Source: Corallococcus silvisoli (lineage in GTDB: Bacteria; Myxococcota; Myxococcia; Myxococcales; Myxococcaceae). Taken from it: a stretch of DNA of 64,000 nt. How positions within the stretch are numbered: the stretch's first letter is position 1; each line of letters begins with the position of its first letter. A model generated the notes under the pieces. That model ran no database searches. It was not told the origin of the DNA and worked only from the letters and a program-made list of their open reading frames with translations. The position numbers and the translations under genes are program-made. This document shows positions 5,319 to 53,274 of this stretch, in pieces. Location of the stretch: assembly GCF_009909145.1 (NCBI RefSeq), contig NZ_JAAAPJ010000005.1, positions 336,470 to 400,469 on the forward strand. The letters are read 5' to 3'.

Positions 5319-6671
5319 ATGAAAACCTGGATTCGCTTCCTGGGGAGTCGCGCCACTCAACTCCGGCAGACGGTGCTGGGAGCCCTCCAAGGCTCGGGCC
5401 TCGAGATGGTGTCGCGCCCGGAGGAAGCTCCCCCTGGCCTCGGAGTGATTGTCTTCGATGAAGTGGAAGCGAACACGCTGGAAGCCGTGCGGGACTGCCG
5501 GCTGAGCCCTTCGACACGGGTCCTCGCGGTGGCCACGACGGGCCAGGGACTCGGTGAAGGGGCTTGCTGGCGGCTGCTTCAGGCGGGAGCCTCGGACGTG
5601 CTCGTCTGGGAGGGCGCGCGTGACGCGGCGGCGGAGATCGCCGCACGGCTGGAGCGCTGGCACCAGGTGGAGCGGCTCATCGAGTCGCCCGCCGTGCAAC
5701 GGCGCCTGGTGGGCCGGGCCGCCACCTGGCTCCCGGTGCTGCGCCAGCTCGTGGAGGTGGCCGCGTTCACTGACGCCTCGGTGCTGCTGCTCGGGGAGAG
5801 CGGCACCGGCAAGGAGGAGATGGCCTGTCTCATCCACGAGCTGGACATGCGCCCGGACAAGCGGGAGCTGGTGACGCTGGACTGTACGACGGTGGTGCCG
5901 GAGCTGTCGGGCAGCGAGTTCTTCGGGCATGAGCGGGGCGCCTTCACGGGAGCGACGAACACCCGAGACGGGGCCTTCGCCCTGGCCCATGGCGGGACGC
6001 TGTTCCTGGACGAGGTGGGCGAGCTGCCCCTGGCCCTCCAGGCTCAGTTGCTGCGGGTGGTGCAGGAGCGTCTGTACAAGCGCGTGGGCTCCAACACCTG
6101 GCAGCGGACGGACTTCCGGCTCGTCTGCGCCACCAACCGCGAGCTGTCCCAGCAGGTCGCCCAGGGCGGCTTCCGCCGCGACTTCTTCCACCGCATCCTG
6201 AGCTGGGTGTGCCGGCTCCCGCCCCTGCGCGAGCGACCCGAGGACATCCTCCCGCTGGCCCAGCACTTCCTCCGGTCGATGCGACCCGACATGGCGCTCG
6301 AGCTGGATCCCCACGTGCGGGAGTACCTCCTCAAGCGCAGCTACCCGGGAAACATCCGGGAGCTGCGTCAGCTCATCGGGCGCCTCTGCAAGCGGCACGT
6401 GGGCACCGGGCCCATCACCGTGGGCGACATTCCCCCCGACGAGCTCCCTTCCTCCGAAGGGCTCGGGGACTGGCAGGACGTCTCGTTCGCGCAGGCCATC
6501 CAGCGCGCCCTGTCGCTCGGGGTGGGGCTCAAGGAGATTGGCCGGAGCGCCTCGGACACGGCCATCCGGCTGGCCCTCGCCGAGGAGCAGGGCAACCTCC
6601 AACGCGCCGCCCGGCGGCTGGGCGTCACGGACCGCGCGCTCCAGCTCCGCCGGGCCCAGCGCGACGAATAG
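5319..6671 (+). CDS. Sigma-54-dependent transcriptional activator (NtrC family) with a degenerate receiver-like N-terminus
   Basis: AAA+ Walker A GESGTGKE, the sigma-54 contact motif GAFTGA, and a C-terminal Fis-type HTH (GNLQRAARRLGVTDRALQ). The N-terminal ~120 aa is receiver-like but lacks the acidic pair and the conserved Lys. Confidence 0.9.
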   Translation: MKTWIRFLGSRATQLRQTVLGALQGSGLEMVSRPEEAPPGLGVIVFDEVEANTLEAVRDCRLSPSTRVLAVATTGQGLGEGACWRLLQAGASDVLVWEGARDAAAEIAARLERWHQVERLIESPAVQRRLVGRAATWLPVLRQLVEVAAFTDASVLLLGESGTGKEEMACLIHELDMRPDKRELVTLDCTTVVPELSGSEFFGHERGAFTGATNTRDGAFALAHGGTLFLDEVGELPLALQAQLLRVVQERLYKRVGSNTWQRTDFRLVCATNRELSQQVAQGGFRRDFFHRILSWVCRLPPLRERPEDILPLAQHFLRSMRPDMALELDPHVREYLLKRSYPGNIRELRQLIGRLCKRHVGTGPITVGDIPPDELPSSEGLGDWQDVSFAQAIQRALSLGVGLKEIGRSASDTAIRLALAEEQGNLQRAARRLGVTDRALQLRRAQRDE

Positions 6672-6685
6672 CCGGAGTCATCGCC

Positions 6686-7522
6686 TCAGCATCCGCCGCC
6701 TCGGAGCGCATCGGGGGTCCAGGGGTCTCGCGGCTCTTCCTCCACCGAGGGGGCCGGGCCCTTCCAGGCAGACCTCCGCCCCAAGGGCCTTGGGCGGCAC
6801 CGGCCCATCAATCGCAGCAGGTTGCCCCCCAACACGAGCTGCCGGTCCTTCGGAGACAGCTCCAGCGCGAGCACCTTGGCCAGCTCCACCCCCGGGTGCA
6901 GCCACGGGCCATCCGAGCCGAAGAGCAGCTTGTGTGCCCCGGCCCGCTCCACCGCCTCCTCCAGCAGGTCGAAGCGGCGCACCCCAGCGGTGTCGGCGTG
7001 GACGTTGGGCAGGCGCGCCAGGAGGTCCAACAGCGCGCGCTGCGCTCGCCAGTCGTCCGCGAAGCTGCCCAGGTGCGGGATGATGAAGCTCACCTCCGGG
7101 TACTCGGTGGCGATCAACTCCACACCGGAGACTTCTCCCATCACGTCGTAGAGGATGGGCAGCGCGAAGGCCCGGGCCACCTCGCAGATCTCACGGGAGA
7201 TGCGCGCGTCGTAGCGGTGGACCTTGATGCCCCGGAAGCCGTAGCGCCGCACGGCCTCCTGGACCCGCTCGAAGACGCGCCCGCGGTCTCTCACGGCATG
7301 CACGAAGGCGAAGCCGTAGAAGCGCTCCGGGTGGCGTTTCACGAGGCGGGCCACCTGGCGATTCGCCGTGGCGTAGTCGGAGTGGAACGCGGCCAGCAGC
7401 ACCGTGCGGGAGATGCCCGCGGCGGACGCGCGCCGCAGGTAGTCCTCCAGCGGCGCGGAGGTGTCCCAGGGGCCGGTGAGCCCGTCGCCCTTCCCGGCAT
7501 GGCAATGGCAGTCGATGATCAT
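6686..7522 (-). CDS. Amidohydrolase-2 family metal-dependent hydrolase (operon gene F)
   Basis: Starts MIIDCHCH (HxH metal motif). Also GIKVH, IIPHLG and LLFGSDGPW, typical of TIM-barrel amidohydrolases. The track ORF 6686-7657 is trimmed to ATG 7522, 7 nt after the stop of gene E. Confidence 0.85.
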   Translation of the reverse strand: MIIDCHCHAGKGDGLTGPWDTSAPLEDYLRRASAAGISRTVLLAAFHSDYATANRQVARLVKRHPERFYGFAFVHAVRDRGRVFERVQEAVRRYGFRGIKVHRYDARISREICEVARAFALPILYDVMGEVSGVELIATEYPEVSFIIPHLGSFADDWRAQRALLDLLARLPNVHADTAGVRRFDLLEEAVERAGAHKLLFGSDGPWLHPGVELAKVLALELSPKDRQLVLGGNLLRLMGRCRPRPLGRRSAWKGPAPSVEEEPRDPWTPDALRGGGC

Positions 7523-7529
7523 CGTCGCG

Positions 7530-8516
7530 TCATCGGCGCTCGAACAGCTCGTAGAGCGCCTTGTCGGGGAGCGAGAGCGCGCGGTTGGCGATGCCAGGCG
7601 CCTTGGCGGCCCGGACGCCCCATGGATTCGGCGGGAGCAAGCCCTGGATGGAGACACCTCCTCTCACGCGGAACTGCCGGATGGAGCTCAGGTTGCGAAG
7701 GCGGCCCGCGGGGACGGCTCCAGAGAGCAGGAGCGCGCGGATCAGCGCATGCTCCACCGCCCTGCGAGCCTGTCGGGTGTTGGGCTGAATCGTCCCGAAC
7801 CAGACCGTGATGGGCTTGGGCAGCAGCCCCCCCTTCTGGGTGAGCCCCATCTGGTAGAGGCTCAGCAGGCGTCCTCGCCAGCGCCCCTGGAAGCTGTCCG
7901 TCTCGCCCACGTAGAGGGGAAGCCCCTCCTCCTCCACGACGTACAAGCCACCTCCGGCGGGAAGCGCGGAGAACGGGTGGCGATCAATCTTCCGCACCGA
8001 CCAGGAGAGGACCTTCGCGGTGACGGGGCCCCGCTGTGCCTCGAGCTCCTGCGACTCCGCGGGAGGGGGCCCGTCCTGCCCGGGCGGAGCGTCCGAGGGT
8101 TCCTCGGGAGGCGCCACATCCGGCGGCGGCTGCGCCGCGGCCACCGGCTCGACGCTGTCGGGAGGGGGCTCGTTCAGGGCCGGCTGGTAGAGCGGGTAGC
8201 CGTACGGCCCTCCGCCGTAGACCACCCAGGGGCGGCCCCTCGGCCACCGCCGCCCCGGCCTCGGCCCCTGCCCCTGCCCCTGCCCCTGCCCGGGGCTCCG
8301 CCACGCACGGGCCGGTCTCGAACCCGAACGCCAGACCTGCGCCCGGGGGACGCCCATCATCCCGCGTCCGACCCCGAACCGCCTCGCGCCGGGCTGGAGT
8401 GCACGAGCGCGGCGCGCAGGTGGCGCACGGAAGGACCGCGCGAAGTGGCCCTCCTCTTCGCCTTCCCACTCGGACTCCAACGCGTCTTCGCTCTCGTTCT
8501 CGTACCACTCATTCAT
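7530..8516 (-). CDS. Hypothetical protein: acidic head, Arg-rich/GQ-repeat segment, Pro-rich linker, GIY-YIG-like C-terminal domain (operon gene E)
   Basis: N-terminus MNEWYENESEDALESEWEGEEEG, followed by about 18 Arg with no acidic residues. The C-terminal half contains GLYVVEEEGLPLYVGETDSFQGRWRGRL...AVEHALI, resembling GIY-x8-YxG-R...E. Start overlaps the gene D stop (ATGAATGA). Confidence 0.75.
   Translation of the reverse strand: MNEWYENESEDALESEWEGEEEGHFARSFRAPPARRARALQPGARRFGVGRGMMGVPRAQVWRSGSRPARAWRSPGQGQGQGQGPRPGRRWPRGRPWVVYGGGPYGYPLYQPALNEPPPDSVEPVAAAQPPPDVAPPEEPSDAPPGQDGPPPAESQELEAQRGPVTAKVLSWSVRKIDRHPFSALPAGGGLYVVEEEGLPLYVGETDSFQGRWRGRLLSLYQMGLTQKGGLLPKPITVWFGTIQPNTRQARRAVEHALIRALLLSGAVPAGRLRNLSSIRQFRVRGGVSIQGLLPPNPWGVRAAKAPGIANRALSLPDKALYELFERR
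8265..8291 (-). repeat. Hexanucleotide tandem repeat (cccctg x4.5) encoding (GQ)4
   Basis: Read directly from the sequence. In frame within gene E. Confidence 0.9.
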
Positions 8517-9594
8517 GACGTGTCCTCCGCTGCTGCCTTCCGTCGACGGCTTCCACCAGCGCCTCCACTGCGTGAGTCAGCTCCTCCGCGCCGTGCCGCG
8601 CGGTGAGGATGAAGCTCACCGACACCTCCGGACCGCAGCGCGAGCGCTGGAGCACGGTCCGGATGCCACGCCGGTGCAGCCGCTCGTGGACCGCTCGCGG
8701 GTTCACCCCGCGAGGAAGCTGGATCCGCTGCACCGGGAACCGCCCGCCCACCGAGGCCAACCCCGACCGCCGCAGCCGCCCCCGGAAGTGCGCCACCCGC
8801 AGCGCCAGCGCCTCCCGGAGCGCGTCGCCTTTCCGGCGATTGATGGCCACCGCGTGCTCGGCGGCATGGAGATCCGCCACCGAAGGTGGACTGCAATGCA
8901 TCCGCGTCTCGCTGCGCTCCTCGTACCTGGCCACCACCCGCGCGCCGCCGGCCATCAGCGCCATCGGCACACCCAAGGCCTTCGCCATCGAGCCGCACCA
9001 CAGGACATCTGGCCCGTGGATGCCGTACCAGCGCAGCGAACCCCCTCCGCCGGCTCCGTATGGCAGGCCGGGCCCCGGCATGCCGAACACTCCCAAGGCT
9101 TGGGTGTCGTCCAGGATGAGCAGGCCCCCATGGGCCCGGACCACCTCCAGGTACGCGTCGAGCGGCGCCAGCGCGCCGCAGCCCGGACACCAACCGTCGC
9201 AGACCACCACCGGCCGGAGCCCCTGGCGCGGCGCCCGTGCCAGGAGCCTCGCCAGGGCCTCGGGCGAATGATGGGGAAAGCTCCTCACGGGTCCGCCGCG
9301 CGCCACCACCCGCTCGAACCCCCACCGCACCACCGGGTAGCTGCCTTCATCCCAGTAGAGGGCCACGGGGCGCCCCGCGAGCGCTCCGAACACGTCCCAG
9401 AACAGGTGCAGCGTGGAGCGGGCGAACAGCCCCCGCTCGCAGCCCACCAGCTCCGCCAGGGCGCGTGACGTCTCTTGCGTTCCGGGGGGCTCCTCGAGGA
9501 TGGCCGGAGTGCCCAGGGTGAGCCGCTCCCACGGCGCGAGCGATCCGCTGGAGTGCTCCAGGCCCAGGTAGAGCGCGGAGGTGAAGTCGAGCAC
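8509..9594 (-). CDS. 8-amino-7-oxononanoate synthase-like PLP-dependent acyltransferase, divergent active site (operon gene D)
   Basis: N-terminal LDFTSALYLGLEHS (compare DFxSNDYLGL). DDTQALGVFG stands where the family has DDAHGxG. Lys is retained in GSMAKALG. GTG start with GGGGGA 9 nt upstream. Confidence 0.8.
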   Translation of the reverse strand: MLDFTSALYLGLEHSSGSLAPWERLTLGTPAILEEPPGTQETSRALAELVGCERGLFARSTLHLFWDVFGALAGRPVALYWDEGSYPVVRWGFERVVARGGPVRSFPHHSPEALARLLARAPRQGLRPVVVCDGWCPGCGALAPLDAYLEVVRAHGGLLILDDTQALGVFGMPGPGLPYGAGGGGSLRWYGIHGPDVLWCGSMAKALGVPMALMAGGARVVARYEERSETRMHCSPPSVADLHAAEHAVAINRRKGDALREALALRVAHFRGRLRRSGLASVGGRFPVQRIQLPRGVNPRAVHERLHRRGIRTVLQRSRCGPEVSVSFILTARHGAEELTHAVEALVEAVDGRQQRRTRHE

Positions 9595-9609: not shown

Positions 9610-11466
9610 TCACCGCCTCCGCTGCAGGGCCAGCCGGTTGCGCAGGTGCACCGAGGGGGACACGTAGCGCTCCGCCAGGCGCTGCTGGTCGGTGATGTCG
9701 ACCGCGAGGTCCACGCCGGTGACGGCCCGGTACGCGTGGATGTAGCCCTGGATCTCCGGCCGCCAGTAGCGCGCCCAGTTGGCGGCCTGGTTCGGGTCGT
9801 TCGTGATGCTCCACGCGCCGTAGCGCACGGCCAGGAGCACCTGCTCGCCGTAGACGGCGAGGTCGTGGAAGTGCACCACGCTGACGTCCGTCCACCCCAG
9901 GAGCGACTTCATCGCATCCACCCGGTCCATCCACGGCTCCGGGTAGGGCACCATCACCCGCCCGCCGAGGAACTCGCGCATCTCCGGGCGCGACAGCAGC
10001 CACTGCTGCATCAGCATCTCCTGGCGCGCGGTGGAGGGCATGTCTCCGAACTGGTTATGGGCCCCCTGCGCCAGCAGGTAGTGCGTCTCCTTGAGCGAGT
10101 TGAGCACCGGGAAGCCGTCCGACACCACGGTGGTGTCATCGTCCTGCCGGAAGAACTGCACGCATTGGTGGAGCAGGTTGTGGAAGGACTCGAGGAACTT
10201 CGAGCGCCGATCCGCGGTGCGCATCCCGGACACGGCCTTGCCGTGCAGCGTGAAGCCATATTCGTGGTCGTACTCGTGGGCGCGGCGCACGACGCTCAGC
10301 CGGTGCTGCTCGTCCTGGAGGTAGCCCCACAACACGTTGTTGAGGGGCCGCAGCGGATCGATCTCCATGTTCGCCAGCGGATCCCGGTCCCCGGGCCCGC
10401 GCACGTTCTGGAAGCGATTGCTGATGTAGTTCATCGCCTGGACCAGCATTCCCTCCTCGTGCCAGTAGTTCCAGATGAGCTCCAGGAAGGTGGGGTAGCC
10501 CAGCTTCTGCTGGAGGATGCCGTAGCAAGCGGCGTAGTCGTCCTCCGGAATGTTCCGAGGCGCGATGACCGGCACGTCGGGGAGCTTGTTGCGGATGATC
10601 GCCAGGTAGGGGAGCGCGACATCGGCGCTTCCGTTCACATCCTCCAGGTAGTGCTTCCACACGACCTCGAAGTCGAAATCGCGAGGAAGCGTCTGGCCGA
10701 GGCGACCGCCCTCCACGCGCGCGTCCAGCTTGTCCAGCAGCTCCGTGAAGTCCACCAGCACGCCCGTGCGCTCCAGCATGAAGGCCTCGGTCAGGGCCTT
10801 CAGCTTCCGGTAGGCATCCACGCCAGGGAATGGCAGCCGGAGCTTGGGCTTGCGGATCGGGGTCGGCCTGCCCGGGCCCGGCAGGCCCGTGCCCGGGTCC
10901 GTCATGTGGTCGGGCGGGCAGAGGTGTGCGTCGATGAACCGGCTGTATTGATCGAAGGAGAGCCAATCGGTGGTCTTGCGGATGACCATCCAGAGGATGA
11001 CGTCGGTCGTCAGCGGATGAAGGGTGCGCTGCAGCGCCACGGGGAGGACAGGCATGCGTCCAGCCGCGCCGAAGGAGTTGAGCTCGTTGAGCGCTTCGCG
11101 CACCACCTCCCGGACGTTCCTGTCGCCCTCTCCCGGGAGGAGGGTCAGCGACTGTTCGGCTTCCCAGGTGAACGCGGGCCTGGTGGAGCCCGCCCCTTCG
11201 AACTCCTCGAGGATGACCTTGGCCTTGAGGACGCCCGCGCGCCTCGAGCTGGGAATCGTCCAGGTCGCGTGGCCATTGAGCTCCTGCCTGTCCGCGCTGG
11301 ACTTGGAGACCGGGGGTTCGACGCTGCCGGCCTCCACGGACCATCTGTAGACCCGATGCGTGAGCTTCGGGTTCACGTGGACGGGGGACGCCGACAGTTC
11401 GACGGTGGCACCCGAAGCGCTCGAGGTGACGGTGGTGGGTGAGAGAGTGAGTGTGACGCCAGCCAT
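9610..11466 (-). CDS. Large hypothetical protein, 618 aa, no recognisable domain (operon gene C)
   Basis: High GC3. ATG 11466 is preceded by GGAGGA (the track ORF starts at TTG 11481). N-terminal ~110 aa is beta-rich, followed by a long helical region (FLELIWNYWHEEGMLVQAMNYISNRF, HEYDHEYGF). Confidence 0.8.
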   Translation of the reverse strand: MAGVTLTLSPTTVTSSASGATVELSASPVHVNPKLTHRVYRWSVEAGSVEPPVSKSSADRQELNGHATWTIPSSRRAGVLKAKVILEEFEGAGSTRPAFTWEAEQSLTLLPGEGDRNVREVVREALNELNSFGAAGRMPVLPVALQRTLHPLTTDVILWMVIRKTTDWLSFDQYSRFIDAHLCPPDHMTDPGTGLPGPGRPTPIRKPKLRLPFPGVDAYRKLKALTEAFMLERTGVLVDFTELLDKLDARVEGGRLGQTLPRDFDFEVVWKHYLEDVNGSADVALPYLAIIRNKLPDVPVIAPRNIPEDDYAACYGILQQKLGYPTFLELIWNYWHEEGMLVQAMNYISNRFQNVRGPGDRDPLANMEIDPLRPLNNVLWGYLQDEQHRLSVVRRAHEYDHEYGFTLHGKAVSGMRTADRRSKFLESFHNLLHQCVQFFRQDDDTTVVSDGFPVLNSLKETHYLLAQGAHNQFGDMPSTARQEMLMQQWLLSRPEMREFLGGRVMVPYPEPWMDRVDAMKSLLGWTDVSVVHFHDLAVYGEQVLLAVRYGAWSITNDPNQAANWARYWRPEIQGYIHAYRAVTGVDLAVDITDQQRLAERYVSPSVHLRNRLALQRRR

Positions 11467-11483
11467 GATTCCATCCTCCAACG

Positions 11484-12827
11484 CTAGGTGACGACGTTCC
11501 GCGGCAACGCGGGAGCCCGGAGCACCGACGCCAGGGTCCGCGACTTCGAGAGTGACGCGCAGGTCTCGGACGCATCGAGCGTGCTGCGCAGGGCCCAGTA
11601 CTTGAGGAGCTCGGCCAGGGCCTTGCTCTCCTCCTCGGGAGTGATGGCCCCGTCGGCCCTGGCCTGCCCGATGACGGCGAACACCAGCGAGGGCGGCGAC
11701 TCACGAATGCGGGAGCGCCGGGCGCGCCACTCCCGGTACAGCTCGGAGAGCCGGTCTGGCTGACGCTCCCGCGTCTTCATGACCTCCACCAGCGTGCGTC
11801 CACGAAGGGACTCCGGCCGGTGCTCCACCAGGAGCCGCGCGATGCGCGGCAGGCTCGCCTCGAGCGCGCCGAGCACCCGGCGGTGCTGCTCGGACAGTCC
11901 GTCGATGGGGTAGAACGCCTTCCACAGTCGCGCCAGCCGCGCCCACTGCGGATGCGGATACAGCAGTCCGCCCAGCGCGCTGCTCAGCTTGACGCGGATC
12001 CACGGGATGGGATGGGGGTCGTCCATGTTCAGCCGGAACACGAACGGCCGCGGCAGGCTCACCACCCCCATCAGCCCCACCGTGGCGGTCACCCCCACGC
12101 GAGCCACCGACCAGAAATCCGCGACGACCTCCGAGATCCACCGCTCCCACAGGCCCCAGACCAGCGCGTCCTCGGGCCCTTCACGCGGCACGTCGCGCAG
12201 GGCCACGCGGAGCGAGGCCACCAGGTCCAGCAGCGCCGCCCCCTGGTGCCCCACCTCGTGGAAGAGGGAGGACGCGAGGCTGCTGCCGATCATCCGCTCG
12301 CGGGGGACGCGGATGATGGCCACCGGGTTCGCCCCGCCGCCGGGCAGACGCGTGCGCGCCCGGCGGATGGCCGCTCCGGGGCCGCGAGCCAGGTAGCAGA
12401 TGACGGGCGGCGCCTCGTAGTACCCCGGCAGCTCCAGCGCGTTCTTGGAGAGCACGTCCAGCCCCGCCAGCCAGACGCCGTTGTCCGCCTCGCTGCGCTG
12501 GCTCATGGCCTCGCTGAAGATGTCGAACTGCGACAGCACCACGTTGAAGCGCAGCCGCAGGAAGGTGAAGCGCCGCTGCGCCTCGGCGGGGGCCGCGTGT
12601 CGGCCCCAGGGGCCCTCCAACCACGCGAGGTACTGGTGGATCTGCGTCCGTAGCTCACGGCGCCCCTTGACCAGGTAGCTCTCCAACGCCGCCTGCGCTT
12701 CGACGGAGAGCGTGGCCGCTGGGACCATCGTCTCCGACATGGCGAAGGACTTGATGCGCTCGAGCCGGGTGAGCAGCGCGCGGGCCTCCTGTGACAGCAT
12801 CCAGGAGGCGAAGGAGCCGGAGGACAT
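11484..12827 (-). CDS. Hypothetical protein with a single HExxH zinc-metalloprotease motif (operon gene B)
   Basis: SLFHEVGHQGAALLDL is the only recognisable motif. Starts 6 nt after the gene A stop. Confidence 0.75.
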   Translation of the reverse strand: MSSGSFASWMLSQEARALLTRLERIKSFAMSETMVPAATLSVEAQAALESYLVKGRRELRTQIHQYLAWLEGPWGRHAAPAEAQRRFTFLRLRFNVVLSQFDIFSEAMSQRSEADNGVWLAGLDVLSKNALELPGYYEAPPVICYLARGPGAAIRRARTRLPGGGANPVAIIRVPRERMIGSSLASSLFHEVGHQGAALLDLVASLRVALRDVPREGPEDALVWGLWERWISEVVADFWSVARVGVTATVGLMGVVSLPRPFVFRLNMDDPHPIPWIRVKLSSALGGLLYPHPQWARLARLWKAFYPIDGLSEQHRRVLGALEASLPRIARLLVEHRPESLRGRTLVEVMKTRERQPDRLSELYREWRARRSRIRESPPSLVFAVIGQARADGAITPEEESKALAELLKYWALRSTLDASETCASLSKSRTLASVLRAPALPRNVVT

Positions 12828-12833
12828 GGTGGC

Positions 12834-13463
12834 TCAGACCCCGTAGAGGATGATCTTGTTGCCCTTGCGCACCCAGCGGCCACTGCGGCCACCGGTGCCC
12901 GCGGCGTGCGGCATCTGGGCGGCGAAGCCAGGGGCGAACTTCTGGATGGCCTGGTGGACGGCGGCGCCAGCCACCTGCTGGGGCGAAGCATTGTCGGGCG
13001 AGTTGAGGGCCGTCTTGGAGGCGTCCGAGGCGAGTCGGACAATCTGCCGGGCCACCTCGAACTCGCGGTCCTCCTGGCTCAGGCCCTCCAGTTCGAGCCC
13101 GAACGCCTGGCCCGCCATGGAGGCCAGCTTGCCACCGACGGCGCCGCCCACGCCGGGGACCACGAGGTTGCCGAGCGCGCTGCCCACCATCGGCAGGGCC
13201 TGCCTGGCCAGTCCCTTGAGCATGCCCCCGAGCTGCTTGCCCAGCGGAGACTTCACGACCTTGCCGACGGCGCTGCCCACCTTCTTGATGATGTTGCCGA
13301 GGAACTGATCCAGCTCCTGCTCGTTGCTGACCTCCAGCAGCTCCGAGGCGAGCTCGTTCAGCTCGTTCTCGTTGAAGACCTCGCCCCACTCCGACTCGGC
13401 GTTGAACTCGAACTCGAACGACTCCCCCTCCAGTTCCTGGTAGGTGCGATCCACGTCATGCAT
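12834..13463 (-). CDS. 209-aa protein with an acidic head and a cationic Gly/Lys-rich core (operon gene A)
   Basis: ATG 13463 preceded by GAGGAA. The track ORF 12834-13712 is trimmed because its upstream part is Arg/Pro/Ala-rich junk. Residues 1-54 carry 15 Glu, 3 Asp and 1 Arg. Residues 55-122 carry 7 Lys, 1 Arg, 16 Gly and no acidic residues. C-terminus is GRWVRKGNKIILYGV. Confidence 0.8.
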   Translation of the reverse strand: MHDVDRTYQELEGESFEFEFNAESEWGEVFNENELNELASELLEVSNEQELDQFLGNIIKKVGSAVGKVVKSPLGKQLGGMLKGLARQALPMVGSALGNLVVPGVGGAVGGKLASMAGQAFGLELEGLSQEDREFEVARQIVRLASDASKTALNSPDNASPQQVAGAAVHQAIQKFAPGFAAQMPHAAGTGGRSGRWVRKGNKIILYGV

Positions 13464-13520
13464 GGTCAGTTCCTCGTGTGATGGGGCCGGCTTCGTGGCC
13501 GCGGGTTCGGACCGGGCATA

Positions 13521-13536
13521 AGCAGCGGCTGTGCCA
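13521..13536 (-). promoter_or_regulatory. Sigma-54 (-24/-12) promoter candidate for the six-gene operon
   Basis: Minus strand reads TGGCACAGCCGCTGCT against the consensus TGGCACG-N4-TTGCW. GG and GC have correct spacing. The -12 element is about 58 nt upstream of ATG 13463. No other correctly placed TGGCAC/GC pair was found in the window. Confidence 0.6.
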
Positions 13537-13581
13537 ACCCCGCCGAGGGTCGCTCCTGCTCTGGGAGTCAGGGCGCGGGAG

Positions 13582-13639
13582 CGAAGCGCGCTTCGGCGGC
13601 GCCGGCCGAACGGGAGATTCGGCGAAGCAGGCTTCGGCG
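13582..13639. promoter_or_regulatory. Candidate upstream activator sites: perfect palindrome plus TTCGGCG repeats
   Basis: CGAAGCGCGCTTCG (13582-13595) is a perfect 14-bp palindrome. TTCGGCG occurs at 13592, 13618 and 13633, with an inverted GCCGAA at 13605. The sites lie about 45-105 bp upstream of the -24 element. Confidence 0.3.
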
Positions 13640-13766
13640 CCCCGTCATGGCCCCGTGGGCTCCGGGCGAGTCCCCCCCCTGGCGAGGGCATTCGTCCCCT
13701 CGCCGTCGCCATTCGCGGGGCCGTCGGCTAGCGTTCGGCCCTCTCCGCGGAACAAGAGGGGGGCCC

Positions 13767-16040
13767 ATGCGCGTCGTACCGTCCATCCTGGAATCCGTCA
13801 CCGTTCACGCCGAAGGCGCGCTGTGCACCCGCGCGCTCGTGCTCTCCCCCGAGGACGGGCACCTGCCCGAACAGGTCCGCGTCGACGGCCTGCCCCTGGC
13901 CCTGCGAACAGCGACCCTGCGCGCCCGCGTGGTGGAGGGCCCCACCGGGCTCCTCGTCCGCGACCTGCGGCCCACGTTCGACGTGCGGCTGCCCGCCGAA
14001 TCGGACCTGCCCGCGGAGCTGCACGCGGCCGAAGCGGCGGAGGCCGCGCTGTCGGACGTGCTGGGCCGGCTGGAGCGGGTGCGCGCGGAGCTGGAGACCC
14101 TTCAGGGACTGGCGCCCTCCTTCCCGCCCCAGCGCAAGGGCCAGCTCCCGCGCGAGGCGCCCCTCGCCGCGATGCTGGCGCTGACGGGCTTCGTGGACGC
14201 GGAGCTGACGGCGCTGCATGCCCAGCGGCTGGAGCTGGAGCGGCAGTACCGCGACGCCACCCAAGAGCTGGAGCTGCGCCGCCGCCGCGTCCAGGAGCTG
14301 TCCTCCGCGCGAAGCGTGGACCGGGCCCGGCTCTTCCGCGCGGCCCTCCTCACGCTGTCCGGCCCCATCGCCGCGAACGCGGAGGCGCGCCTGGTGTTGG
14401 AGTACGCCGTGGCGGGCGCGCGATGGGTGCCCACCTACGACCTGCGCCTGCCGCGCACGCTGGAGGAAGGCACGCTGCGCATGCGTGCCGCCGTCATCCA
14501 GCGGACCGGCGAGGACTGGAAGGGGGTCCGGCTGTCGGTCTCCACCGCGAGCCTGGAGCGGCGCGCGGTGGTGCCGGAGCTGAAGTCGCTGCGCATCGGC
14601 CGCAGCCAGCCGGCGCCCGTGCGCTCGGGATGGCGTGAGCCCGCGCCGGGCCTGGACGAGCTGTTCGCGGGCTACGACGCCATGACGGTGCCGCCCCCTC
14701 TCGCGATGCCCGAGCCTCTTCCGCCCCCTCCGATGGACGAGCTGGACGCGGATGAGGACTCGTTCGGGAGCGTGGTGGCCTTCGAGGAGTCCTTGAAGGA
14801 GAAGTCGCCGAAGGCGATGTCGTCCTCGTATGGGGGCGCGCCGGGCGCTCCGCCCATGGCGCCCCCTTCCGTCTCCCGGCCCGCGCCGCCGCCCATGCCG
14901 GCTCCCAAGGCCGCGGCCCCCGCGCTGGGCGGAGTCCGCCCGTCGGCGGCCCCGAGCCGGAACCTCAGCGACGGCGGAGACCTCAGCCGGAGTTTCCGGC
15001 GGGATGCCCCGGGCCGGGGCGGCGGCGGGATGAGCAAGAAGCGCGCGGCCGAGGAGGAGAGCCTCGATGATGCCCCGATGATGGACCTGTCATCGGACCT
15101 CTCGGACGGCGAGGGCGGCGGCGGGGAGTCGCGGCGCACGAGGGCCCTGGAGCCCGCGGACAGCCTGTTCGACTACGACTCGCTGACGCTGGCCCCTCCG
15201 GGCGCTCCAGCCGAGCGCGGCCGGCTGACGCCCCGGCCGGCGCTCATCACGCAGGCGAGGCTGTCCGTCACTTCCGTGAGTCTCCAGGTCGAAGTGGTGC
15301 GCCTGGAGGCCCAGGCCTTCGTCACCGCCGAGTCCGTGAACACCGTGCCGCCGCCCACGTGGGCGGTGGCGCCGCGCGACTCCGCCCGGCACTTCGACGC
15401 GCGCTTCGACGCGGAGGCGGTCGCGGACGTGCCCGCCGACGGCGCGTGGCACACGGTGCCCATGCTGACGGTGCCCCTGGAGTTCCGCGCCGAATACGTC
15501 TGCGTGCCTTCGGTGGAGCCGCGGGTCTTCCGCACGGTGCGCCTGGACAATCGGACACCGCACCCGCTGCTCGCGGGGCCCGTGGACGTGACGCTCGGGG
15601 ATGAGTTCCTGATGACCTCTCCGCTGCCCACGCTCGGGCCCGGCGAGACGCAGCGGCTGGGATTGGGCGTGGAGGAAGCGATCCAGGTGGCGCGCAACAC
15701 GCGCTTCGAGGAAGCGACGGGCGGCATGTTCGGCAACAACACCGTCCTCACGCACCACGTCTCCGTGGAGGTGACCAACCACCTCGCGCGTCCCGCGACG
15801 CTCGCCATCTCCGAGCGCATCGGCGCGGTGCCCGAGTCCCAGAAGGACCTCAAGGTCGAGGAGGCGGAGGTCATCCCGCCCTGGCAGAAGCCCACGCCCC
15901 TGCCCGGAGAGGTCGCGGTGGAGGGCGAGCGGGTCTGGCGCATGAGCATGCCCGCCGGAGAGAAGCGTTCGATGAAGGCGACATGGGTCGTGAAGCTGCC
16001 CGGCAACAAGATGCTGTACGGCGGGAACCGGAGGACATGA
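13767..16040 (+). CDS. DUF4139 (mucoidy inhibitor MuiA-like) family protein with a ~150-aa Pro/Ala/Gly-rich insertion
   Basis: Hallmark ARWVPTYDLRLP...AAVIQRTGEDWKGVRLSVSTAS. ATG 13767 preceded by AAGAGGGGGG. Low-complexity insertion at about 14640-15190. Confidence 0.8.
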   Translation: MRVVPSILESVTVHAEGALCTRALVLSPEDGHLPEQVRVDGLPLALRTATLRARVVEGPTGLLVRDLRPTFDVRLPAESDLPAELHAAEAAEAALSDVLGRLERVRAELETLQGLAPSFPPQRKGQLPREAPLAAMLALTGFVDAELTALHAQRLELERQYRDATQELELRRRRVQELSSARSVDRARLFRAALLTLSGPIAANAEARLVLEYAVAGARWVPTYDLRLPRTLEEGTLRMRAAVIQRTGEDWKGVRLSVSTASLERRAVVPELKSLRIGRSQPAPVRSGWREPAPGLDELFAGYDAMTVPPPLAMPEPLPPPPMDELDADEDSFGSVVAFEESLKEKSPKAMSSSYGGAPGAPPMAPPSVSRPAPPPMPAPKAAAPALGGVRPSAAPSRNLSDGGDLSRSFRRDAPGRGGGGMSKKRAAEEESLDDAPMMDLSSDLSDGEGGGGESRRTRALEPADSLFDYDSLTLAPPGAPAERGRLTPRPALITQARLSVTSVSLQVEVVRLEAQAFVTAESVNTVPPPTWAVAPRDSARHFDARFDAEAVADVPADGAWHTVPMLTVPLEFRAEYVCVPSVEPRVFRTVRLDNRTPHPLLAGPVDVTLGDEFLMTSPLPTLGPGETQRLGLGVEEAIQVARNTRFEEATGGMFGNNTVLTHHVSVEVTNHLARPATLAISERIGAVPESQKDLKVEEAEVIPPWQKPTPLPGEVAVEGERVWRMSMPAGEKRSMKATWVVKLPGNKMLYGGNRRT

Positions 16041-37399: not shown

Positions 37400-37486
37400 G
37401 CGCTACCTCGTCATGGGGTGAACTGCACGCCTCCCCATTGCACCCCTTGAGCCAACACACCGGACGCGTCTGTCTTCACTCTTGCC

Positions 37487-37499
37487 ATTCATTGAATGA
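37487..37499. promoter_or_regulatory. Palindromic motif ATTCATTGAATGA (copy 1)
   Basis: TCA-N-TGA type inverted repeat. A near-identical copy lies 126 bp downstream. Confidence 0.3.
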
Positions 37500-37517
37500 G
37501 AAAACAGGAGTAGCGAC

Positions 37518-37625
37518 ATGAGTCACATGAAACACTGTATTTGTAGCAAGGCGAGTCACAGCGGCCGCCAAGACGGCCCGGCGGGATCCGGCGCGCCCCC
37601 TTTGAAACCTGGATTCACTGAATGA
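37518..37625 (+). CDS. Candidate 35-aa small ORF with a strong SD sequence
   Basis: AGGAG lies 7 nt upstream of ATG 37518. Translation MSHMKHCICSKASHSGRQDGPAGSGAPPLKPGFTE. Its stop lies inside the second palindrome. Below the ORF-track size cut-off. Confidence 0.3.
   Translation: MSHMKHCICSKASHSGRQDGPAGSGAPPLKPGFTE
37613..37625. promoter_or_regulatory. Palindromic motif ATTCACTGAATGA (copy 2)
   Basis: 12 of 13 identical to the copy at 37487. About 97 nt upstream of the M28 peptidase start. Confidence 0.3.
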
Positions 37626-37721
37626 ACTGATAACGCACGGAATCGCGCCGCGGCGCACAACTTCTGACCGGCTCCGTCGGATAATCTCAGGAAGCGCGTT
37701 TCCTCCCCCGGACTCCCCACC

Positions 37722-52066: not shown

Positions 52067-52597
52067 CTACCGGGTGGCGGCCAGGAGGAACTCCGTCACC
52101 CGCTCCAGGGAGGTGGTGCGCTCGGCCTCCGCCGGGAAGCGCCGGAACAGCTCCGGTGGCCCATGGAGGATGAGCGGCTTGCCATAGCGCAGCGCCAGCA
52201 CGGCCTCCGCCGCGGTGCCCGCGCCCCCGGGCAGCGCCACCAGGGCGTGCGGGGTCAGCACGTTGATGTGGTTGCGGCTCATGGGGTCCGTGCCCTGCTC
52301 CCCGCTGAGCGGCAGGTGGGTGTAGATGGGGATTTCGATGTCCGTGTTCGGATAGCCGGGCCGGGGCTGGTAGCGGCCGTCCGTCCCCACGGTGCCGGGG
52401 ATGATGCCGATGGCCGCCCCCCGCCGCCCCTCCACCTGGACGAAGGCCTCCGCGGCCGCGCTCATCACACCGCCCCCCGCCCCGGTGAGCAGGTCGAAGC
52501 CCGCCTCGGCGATCCACCGCGCCAGGGGGACGACCCACTCCGCGTGGGCCTCCGCCCCCGAGCCGAAGACTCCGATGATGCGGCGGTGTCTGCGCAT
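52067..52597 (-). CDS. LOG/TIGR00725-family (SLOG-type Rossmann) protein
   Basis: IGVFGSG, LLTGAGGGVM and LPGGAGTAAE motifs. The track ORF is trimmed to ATG 52597. Confidence 0.7.
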   Translation of the reverse strand: MRRHRRIIGVFGSGAEAHAEWVVPLARWIAEAGFDLLTGAGGGVMSAAAEAFVQVEGRRGAAIGIIPGTVGTDGRYQPRPGYPNTDIEIPIYTHLPLSGEQGTDPMSRNHINVLTPHALVALPGGAGTAAEAVLALRYGKPLILHGPPELFRRFPAEAERTTSLERVTEFLLAATR

Positions 52598-52840
52598 GAC
52601 TGCATCCTCCCCAGGAGCCCCGAGCTGCGTGAGCCCCTGTTCCATGCGAATCCGTTGCCAACGCCGCAAGGGCTCACGGACCGCCGTGCGGCCTCCCTCC
52701 CGTCCACCCGTGGAAGGTGCGCGGGGCGAGCGTCCGACACCCGTCGCTTCCCCCCGCCTGGAGCGCCAGACGCCCTCACCCAACCTGGGATGTCGGACCC
52801 CTCCTCTACCTTCGTTCACGAATGAGCCCGGAGACTGCCC

Positions 52841-53146
52841 ATGTTCGACGCCTGTGGAGGTTGTGAGCGCCGTGGTACCGCCGGTGAGGTGTTCGACTGG
52901 TGCGCGCACTGCGAATTGTCCCTGTGCCCCCTCTGCCTCGGACGGGGCTGCTGCGGAAGCACCCCCGCGGAGTCCGGACGGGGCGCGCCCCGGGAGCTGC
53001 CCGAGCCCCCCGAGCACGCGTGCGAACCCCTGCCGGAGCACTTCGGCGGACGCTGCTGCACGCACGCGCGCGCGGTGGCGTGCTCCTGCGCCTTCCACTG
53101 GGTCTGCGTGCGCCACGGCGACGTGCACGTGGGGACGCACGACTGA
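52841..53146 (+). CDS. Cys-rich small protein (101 aa), B-box/zinc-ribbon-like N-terminus
   Basis: C5-x2-C8-x12-C21-x2-C24-x4-C29-x2-C32, then further Cys/His. High GC3. GGAGA lies upstream of the ATG. Confidence 0.55.
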   Translation: MFDACGGCERRGTAGEVFDWCAHCELSLCPLCLGRGCCGSTPAESGRGAPRELPEPPEHACEPLPEHFGGRCCTHARAVACSCAFHWVCVRHGDVHVGTHD

Positions 53147-53274
53147 CATCCGGTCAGTGCCCGGGTGACGTGAAGCATCAACCCCAGGCGGGGCGTTGAC
53201 ACATGGGGGGCCTGTCCACGACGGTTTCAGCCCGTCGGGCACTCCTGCCCGGACGCATCGCGGAGCAAGACACC

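Follow-up and report, generated by a model that had tools for sequence, protein, structure and literature searches.

The window analysed here, 64 kb of Corallococcus DNA with 70.5% G+C, holds upstream of a gene that we call gene A a short stretch of intergenic sequence (13521-13636) that is very probably the sigma-54 promoter and enhancer of a six-gene operon, activated by the product of a gene at 5319-6671. Gene A is the first gene of that operon, and the predicted activator is encoded close to its far end. By sequence comparison, a predicted module of promoter plus paired enhancer sites precedes the operon in about ten phyla. The mechanism suggested by the analysis is ordinary activation of sigma-54 RNA polymerase by an enhancer-binding protein; the regulon and its operon appear to be undescribed so far. 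Coordinates of all features are collected in Table 1.

The promoter element, TGGCACAGCCGCTGCT, had been proposed as a sigma-54 promoter of gene A in an earlier note on this DNA; it is present where that note placed it, and it has strong comparative support across loci. Scored against the consensus TGGCAC-N5-TTGCW (11 specified positions), it agrees at 10 positions; its GG and GC are 10 nt apart, as in sigma-54 promoters, and the C of the -12 element lies 58 nt 5' of the gene A ATG (13463), in sense orientation. The predicted 5' untranslated region would measure about 47 nt. At the level of sequence, this putative promoter has every feature by which a sigma-54 promoter is recognised. TGGCACAGCCGCTGCT is the sole match with at most one mismatch in the 64 kb (1.9 expected from shuffles); the significance of the predicted promoter comes from its conservation across loci, not from window statistics. 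A scan of 13300-13900 found no sigma-70-like promoter and no intrinsic terminator, and an Rfam scan of 12800-14200 at a permissive threshold found no RNA family. Matches with two mismatches are rarer in the window than chance predicts (14 seen, 27 predicted); three of them (37439-37454, 37545-37560 and 52645-52660, all on the minus strand) are apparently intergenic according to the map of open reading frames (ORFs; gaps at 37402-37668 and 52095-53200).

Upstream of the promoter lie two perfect 14-bp palindromes of the form CGAA-N6-TTCG, CGAAGCGCGCTTCG and CGAAGCAGGCTTCG. This form occurs exactly twice in the window (0.51 expected), both copies being in the gene A upstream region; no further pair was found anywhere in the window at up to two mismatches, the region upstream of the activator gene included. 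A repeat search returned two directly repeated copies of an 18-nt unit, GCGAAGCnnGCTTCGGCG (13581-13598 and 13622-13639); they are 41 bp apart, and each holds one palindrome. The two palindromes are dyad-symmetric, and their spacing would put them on the same face of the helix; the putative sites have every sequence-level feature of upstream activating sequences (UAS) for an enhancer-binding protein, namely dyad symmetry, two or more sites and a common helical face.

This description differs in part from that of the earlier note, which had reported the perfect palindrome CGAAGCGCGCTTCG at 13582-13595, rightly, and had overlooked CGAAGCAGGCTTCG. Its view that the layout 45-105 bp further upstream is typical of enhancer-binding-protein sites holds, with two palindromes in place of one palindrome and three direct repeats. 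The TTCGGCG copies are indeed found at 13592, 13618 and 13633, but those at 13592 and 13633 are not independent repeats because they are the right halves of the two palindromes. The remaining TTCGGCG (13618) and an inverted GCCGAA, correctly located at 13605, are only partly conserved even within the Myxococcaceae; both would be lineage-specific elements at most.

Conservation was assessed in 80 loci from species-representative genomes encoding gene A homologues (Myxococcota; Alpha-, Beta- and Gammaproteobacteria; Bacteroidota; Nitrospirota; Chloroflexota; Acidobacteriota; Verrucomicrobiota; Desulfobacterota; Entotheonella), or 81 loci with the window. On the sense strand, the 300 nt preceding gene A contain a sigma-54 match at 10 or more of the 11 positions in 24 of the 80 loci (0.55 expected) and at 9 or more in 40 (3.5 expected), expectations being derived from the remainder of the same loci. 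Pairs of GCGAA-N6-TTCGC upstream of TGGCAC elements were first spotted by eye in Bacteroidota loci. Perfect CGAA-N6-TTCG sites number 99 in 35.9 kb of upstream sequence (4.6 expected) and are nearly always paired, 41-42 bp apart. A perfect pair is located within 500 nt upstream in 42 of the 81 loci, and a pair with one or two mismatches in eight more. Nearly all of the remaining 31 loci (28) have a pair farther away, 600-2600 nt upstream of gene A; just downstream of it lies a sigma-54 element matching at 9-11 of the 11 positions in 27 of these loci and at 8 in the other (L053). The distant modules precede an extra gene, which proved to be a paralogue of gene A sharing its sequence motifs. A different regulator in loci that lack a nearby module was considered and ruled out, the module lying farther upstream, before the paralogue.

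One uniform rule was applied to all loci: a CGAA-N6-TTCG pair with at most one mismatch per pair, within 3 kb upstream, and a sigma-54 element downstream of the pair. By this rule the module is present in 76 of the 81 loci (75 of the 80 loci from other genomes, and the window), upstream of the first gene of the gene A family. Pairs with at most one mismatch number 81 in 216 kb of upstream sequence and six in the other 663 kb, a background from which two would be expected upstream; four of the six background pairs (L051, L073) are located inside gene A, no farther than ~130 nt from its beginning. The consensus of the site is S-CGAA-R-N4-Y-TTCG-C-C. In a footprint alignment of five Myxococcota sequences (the window, C. 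carmarthensis, a related metagenome-assembled genome (MAG), Myxococcus sp. and Archangium), stretches of several bases without any variation are confined to the two palindromes, TGGCAC...CTGC and the ribosome-binding site. Between phyla, the N6 spacers and flanks range from GC-rich to AT-rich. Right past the distal palindrome the sequence ceases to be alignable with relatives, even with another Corallococcus.

Some lineages show variants of the module. At Bacteroidota loci the -12 element deviates from TTGCW, reading TTGGTA, TTTGGCC or TTTGGCA (L010, 5939-5954; L036, 5940-5955; L048, 5773-5789), and the same loci keep TGGCAC or TGGTAC at -24 as well as the enhancer pair; the deviation may reflect a lineage-specific preference or a one-base shift in spacing. 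Pendulispora has a single pair, 32 bp apart, between two divergent genes of the gene A family, each with a -24/-12-like element of its own. Another palindrome pair of Pendulispora, 31 bp apart (L082, 17355-17399), lies near what seems to be a second, incomplete copy of the cluster in inverted orientation (Aminotran_1_2, Amidohydro_2 and OmpA-like genes, minus strand).

The geometry of the module is constrained as well. Among the 76 loci with a module, the window included, the two palindromes are spaced 41-42 bp apart in 61, 43 bp in five, 40 bp in two and 31-33 bp in eight, spacings that would correspond to four or three helical turns. Measured from its centre, the proximal palindrome is separated from the GG of the -24 element by distances that fall into classes of 38-42 bp (17 loci), 50-53 bp (28 loci; window, 53 bp), 60-63 bp (8 loci), 73-74 bp (4 loci), 106-109 bp (3 loci) and 117-121 bp (11 loci); five other loci have single distances of 47, 98, 149, 154 and 180 bp, and nearly nothing lies between the classes. 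The classes form a ladder with a step of ~11 bp. In a Rayleigh test of the first 42 loci the period peaked at 11.25-11.5 bp; its p-value is taken as descriptive only because the loci are not independent. Such a ladder is what a face-of-helix requirement for DNA looping would produce, and other systems are known to loop in vivo with periods close to 11 bp. With enhancer-promoter distances in ~11-bp steps, the ~76 loci form a natural data set that offers comparative evidence on face-of-helix constraints on looping in vivo.

The candidate activator, which the earlier note had already pointed to, gains comparative support from its co-inheritance with the module; its binding to the palindromes is a prediction. 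In the translation, GESGTGKE (Walker A), LFLDEVGEL and GAFTGA are present and are conserved in the alignment of orthologues, as expected of the AAA+ domain of such activators, and an AAA lid is found too. The C-terminal segment with the putative Fis-type helix-turn-helix (HTH), GNLQRAARRLGVTDRALQLRR, is strongly conserved among orthologues. The N-terminal domain comprises ~120 residues and is pseudo-receiver-like. Classification as an NtrC-type response regulator was rejected: there is no Response_reg match, and several orthologues have another residue in place of the Asp in the 'FD' motif. Against NCBIfam equivalogs all scores are far below the cut-offs; the best NCBIfam and PADLOC similarities include PspF-type models, again all below the cut-offs.

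Full-length orthologues of the activator (in tblastn, covering residues 30-486 of the long ORF) are 39-88% identical, N-terminal domain and HTH included. In Runella, Dyadobacter and Flavitalea the gene directly precedes gene A in divergent orientation. The loci of Myxococcus, Archangium and Desulfopila have it at their downstream edge; in Myxococcus and Archangium it follows the operon convergently, as a longer context shows for M. stipitatus, whose module is at L081, 9827-9943. In Pendulispora it is upstream on the same strand. Four contexts were reached from activator homologues (56-88% identity, full length), namely those of a Planctomycetia MAG, a Competibacteraceae MAG, Entotheonella and a Blastocatellia MAG; in all four the activator is convergent with the end of the operon. 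The Planctomycetia and Blastocatellia contexts have the palindrome pair and a sigma-54 element upstream of the first gene-A-type gene, and the Competibacteraceae locus ends before the position of the module. In Entotheonella a pair (41 bp apart) together with TGGCACAATTTGTGCA is found upstream of the activator gene itself (L085, 9614-9840), which suggests that this activator is positively autoregulated; the operon-side pair is in L076, on the same contig as L085. Wherever a locus extends to the relevant position, an orthologue adjoins the cluster; such loci come from six or more lineages of phylum level (Myxococcota, Bacteroidota, Planctomycetota, Gammaproteobacteria, Entotheonella, Acidobacteriota) and show three arrangements.

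A course of events can be proposed in which binding, looping, start site and choice of activator are all predicted. Sigma-54 RNA polymerase would bind TGGCACAGCCGCTGCT and form a closed complex that is unable to start alone. Dimers of the 5319-6671 enhancer-binding protein would occupy both CGAA-N6-TTCG palindromes, ~78 and ~119 bp upstream of the start; separated by 41 bp, or four helical turns, these dimers would sit on the same face of the DNA. The bound dimers would assemble into an active AAA+ ring and, as the short DNA between loops out, make contact with the polymerase; ATP hydrolysis, coupled through the GAFTGA loop, would then open the promoter, with transcription starting near 13510.

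Several points weigh against this assignment. Judged within the window only, the sigma-54 match does not reach significance, and position 12 of the element is C where the consensus has T, as in most orthologous sites of the Myxococcota. The Pfam HTH_8 match of the activator (E = 0.00097, 19.3 bits) is below the 22-bit gathering cut-off. The loci share ancestry, so that the shuffle, Rayleigh and enrichment figures overstate independence; co-occurrence of the activator was checked directly in ~16 loci, most of the 80 stopping short of the activator position. Many sigma-54 activators are to be expected in Corallococcus, as in other Myxococcota, and another of them could bind the sites. The failure of the match to reach significance within the window is also what would speak for motifs that are mere chance matches in GC-rich intergenic DNA, gene A being transcribed from an unrecognised sigma-70-type promoter; this we consider hardly conceivable, as the whole module, spacing included, is kept in 76 of the 81 loci despite widely differing G+C content and flanks, and 13300-13900 holds no sigma-70-like site.

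What is observed directly is the elements themselves, how they are conserved and spaced in the different phyla, and that the activator gene is inherited together with them. A real promoter might be combined with palindromes that are bound by some other regulator (another enhancer-binding protein, a repressor or an architectural protein). We regard this as unlikely. Enhancer-binding proteins are unusually numerous in Myxococcota according to a cross-phylum survey (PMC12316311), and in the window the activator gene has no palindrome site upstream of itself, both of which would suit a different binder; yet the cluster-linked activator is the sole regulator seen travelling with the module across phyla, through three gene arrangements, its HTH is highly conserved, like the site, and the helical-turn spacing and the 11-bp ladder to the -24 element fit an activator that contacts polymerase.

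The region had also been headed a divergent control region, which implies sharing with the DUF4139 operon that starts at 13767, in which case the palindromes, the inverted repeat GGCGAGGG-N8-CCCTCGCC, or both, would regulate that operon too. The two operons are divergent with just 303 bp between them, and the Pendulispora pair, set between two divergent sigma-54 promoters, gives a precedent for such sharing, except that both Pendulispora genes are gene A paralogues and neither encodes DUF4139. The arrangement is not conserved: a DUF4139 gene is found within 6 kb of gene A in none of the 80 loci. On the plus strand, facing the DUF4139 operon, there is no sigma-54-like or sigma-70-like site. The inverted repeat, singled out in the earlier note, is present at 13681-13704 but is unremarkable, such repeats (perfect 8-nt arms, loops of 3-12 nt) occurring 46 times in the window, or ~0.22 expected per 303 bp; it lies outside the module because the sequence past the distal palindrome is unalignable. 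Shared bidirectional control is therefore quite improbable beside a sigma-54 promoter and enhancer serving the gene A operon. As an operator or terminator of the module the repeat was rejected (chance frequency, no T-run, not conserved); it could be a lineage-specific operator of the DUF4139 operon.

Among known systems, the classic one of NtrC with glnAp2 in enteric bacteria likewise combines a -24/-12 promoter with two strong dyad sites at integral helical turns, and NtrC is likewise an AAA+ protein with GAFTGA; it has a Fis-type HTH, for which the activator described here has a candidate segment, and it oligomerises from DNA-bound dimers, as is predicted here. The NtrC sites are roughly 100-140 bp upstream, whereas those described here are closer (~-78 and ~-119); the sites read CGAA-N6-TTCG here and TGCACCA-N3-TGGTGCA for NtrC, and they are spaced mostly four turns apart here and three at glnAp2. 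Unlike in NtrC, the N-terminal domain of the activator has no receiver-family match and the Asp at the acceptor position is not invariant; unlike glnAp2, the target operon is unconnected with nitrogen assimilation. PspF with pspA, of the phage-shock system, likewise pairs a dedicated activator with an adjacent single target operon, two upstream sites and a helical protein encoded by the first gene. PspF, however, has no regulatory domain at its N-terminus and is kept inactive by PspA, whereas a conserved N-terminal domain of ~120 residues is present here; no sequence or fold similarity was detected between the gene A protein and PspA, and the content of the psp operon is unrelated.

Reconstructions of sigma-54 regulons in Desulfovibrio vulgaris (PMC4641369), in Clostridiales (PMC6615313) and across phyla (PMC12316311) use the same logic: a -24/-12 promoter and a palindromic motif for the enhancer are conserved jointly with the gene of an activator nearby. 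The cross-phylum survey is COG-based (clusters of orthologous groups); it states that rpoN is essential in Myxococcus xanthus, and in the text covered by a term search it holds nothing pointing to the gene A operon (PMC12316311). Literature searches on the motif, the operon, the HExxH family and a cross-phylum sigma-54 cassette found nothing specific. The regulon controls a very widespread operon whose core proteins lack a family or fold assignment, and it supplies a precise, testable pair of activator and site (CGAA-N6-TTCG, two copies). It would also provide a ready-made inducible promoter: the operon could be switched on, for example with the activator deprived of its N-terminal domain, to find out what it does.

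Table 1 Features of the window. Positions are those of the 64-kb window; sites and protein functions are predicted.
Feature	Position	Strand	Remarks
Sigma-54 -24/-12 element TGGCACAGCCGCTGCT	13536-13521	minus	GG 13535-13534; GC 13523-13522
Predicted transcription start, ~13510	13508..13512	minus	usual sigma-54 geometry, C of the GC dinucleotide as -12
Ribosome-binding site GAGGA	13471..13475	minus	7 nt 5' of gene A ATG; conserved in Myxococcota alignment
Promoter-proximal UAS palindrome CGAAGCGCGCTTCG	13582..13595		centre ~-78 from predicted start; 53 bp from GG of -24
Promoter-distal UAS palindrome CGAAGCAGGCTTCG	13623..13636		starts 41 bp from proximal site; centre ~-119
Sigma-54 enhancer-binding protein, 450 aa (amino acids)	5319..6671	plus	convergent with operon; Pfam Sigma54_activat 2.2e-53
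Gene A, 209 aa	12834..13463	minus	acidic N-terminus; motifs ELNELASELLEVSNEQELDQFLG and LELEGLSQEDREFE; C-terminal GRWVRKGNKIILYGV hairpin
HExxH protein, 447 aa	11484..12827	minus	second operon gene; HEVGH motif
623-aa protein	9610..11481	minus	third operon gene; in 77 of 80 loci
Pyridoxal phosphate (PLP)-dependent enzyme, alpha-oxoamine synthase-like (BioF/Kbl)	8509..9594	minus	Pfam Aminotran_1_2; in 54 of 80 loci
Variable-slot gene, 328 aa	7530..8516	minus	in only 6 of 80 loci
Amidohydro_2 enzyme	6686..7657	minus	last operon gene; Pfam 4.6e-23
Inverted repeat GGCGAGGG-N8-CCCTCGCC	13681-13704		63 nt before ATG of DUF4139 operon
Two DUF4139/DUF4140 proteins and a hydrolase	from 13767	plus	divergent from gene A, 303 bp between

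The operon is tightly packed on the minus strand, its six genes running from 13463 down to 6686. The gene A protein has 1760 homologues and is 100% identical to 'MULTISPECIES: hypothetical protein [Corallococcus]'. The gene for the HExxH protein is next to gene A in all 80 loci; the protein has more than 5700 homologues, none with a functional name (hypothetical or 'HEXXH motif-containing'). For the three core proteins (gene A, HExxH and 623-aa) no relatives were detected in Pfam, NCBIfam or PADLOC, PDB sequence searches gave nothing meaningful, and no PDB-fold relatives were detected: the gene A model is helical and matches no PDB fold, and that of the HExxH protein (predicted local distance difference test, pLDDT, 82) gives generic helical matches only. 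The 328-aa protein is likewise without a match in Pfam, NCBIfam and PADLOC. BioF/Kbl-type NCBIfam matches of the PLP enzyme are all below the cut-offs. The Amidohydro_2 gene adjoins the activator gene in L084-L086, and in L083 a small Amidase_2 gene lies between the two.

In other phyla the variable slot is taken by PG_binding_1, VanY or Peptidase_M20 genes, and these accessory genes hint at a role of the operon in the cell envelope or peptidoglycan. Such a role would agree with the general proposal of sigma-54 as a regulator of functions at the cell exterior. Cell-wall COGs are enriched in Myxococcia in the sigma-54 survey cited above (PMC12316311). A wider proposition, on which we are evenly divided, is that activator, two-palindrome enhancer, promoter and operon form a self-contained regulon cassette that has moved horizontally between at least ten phyla with its cis-wiring and helical phasing kept, the cassette being an undescribed system of protein families without recognisable fold relatives that is directed at the envelope or peptidoglycan (stress response, remodelling or antagonism).

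A second paralogue of the gene A family is present at many loci, where it precedes gene A in tandem or, in the case of Pendulispora, has the divergent orientation; the window has one copy. Examples are L031 (5257-5961), L050 (5333-5941), L004 (5143-5982), L057 (5184-5942), L086 (16580-17347) and L082 (9090-9758). The paralogues share the motifs ELAAELLEV..ELDxFLG and LELEGLSQEDREFE and a C-terminal GRWxRxG..I.

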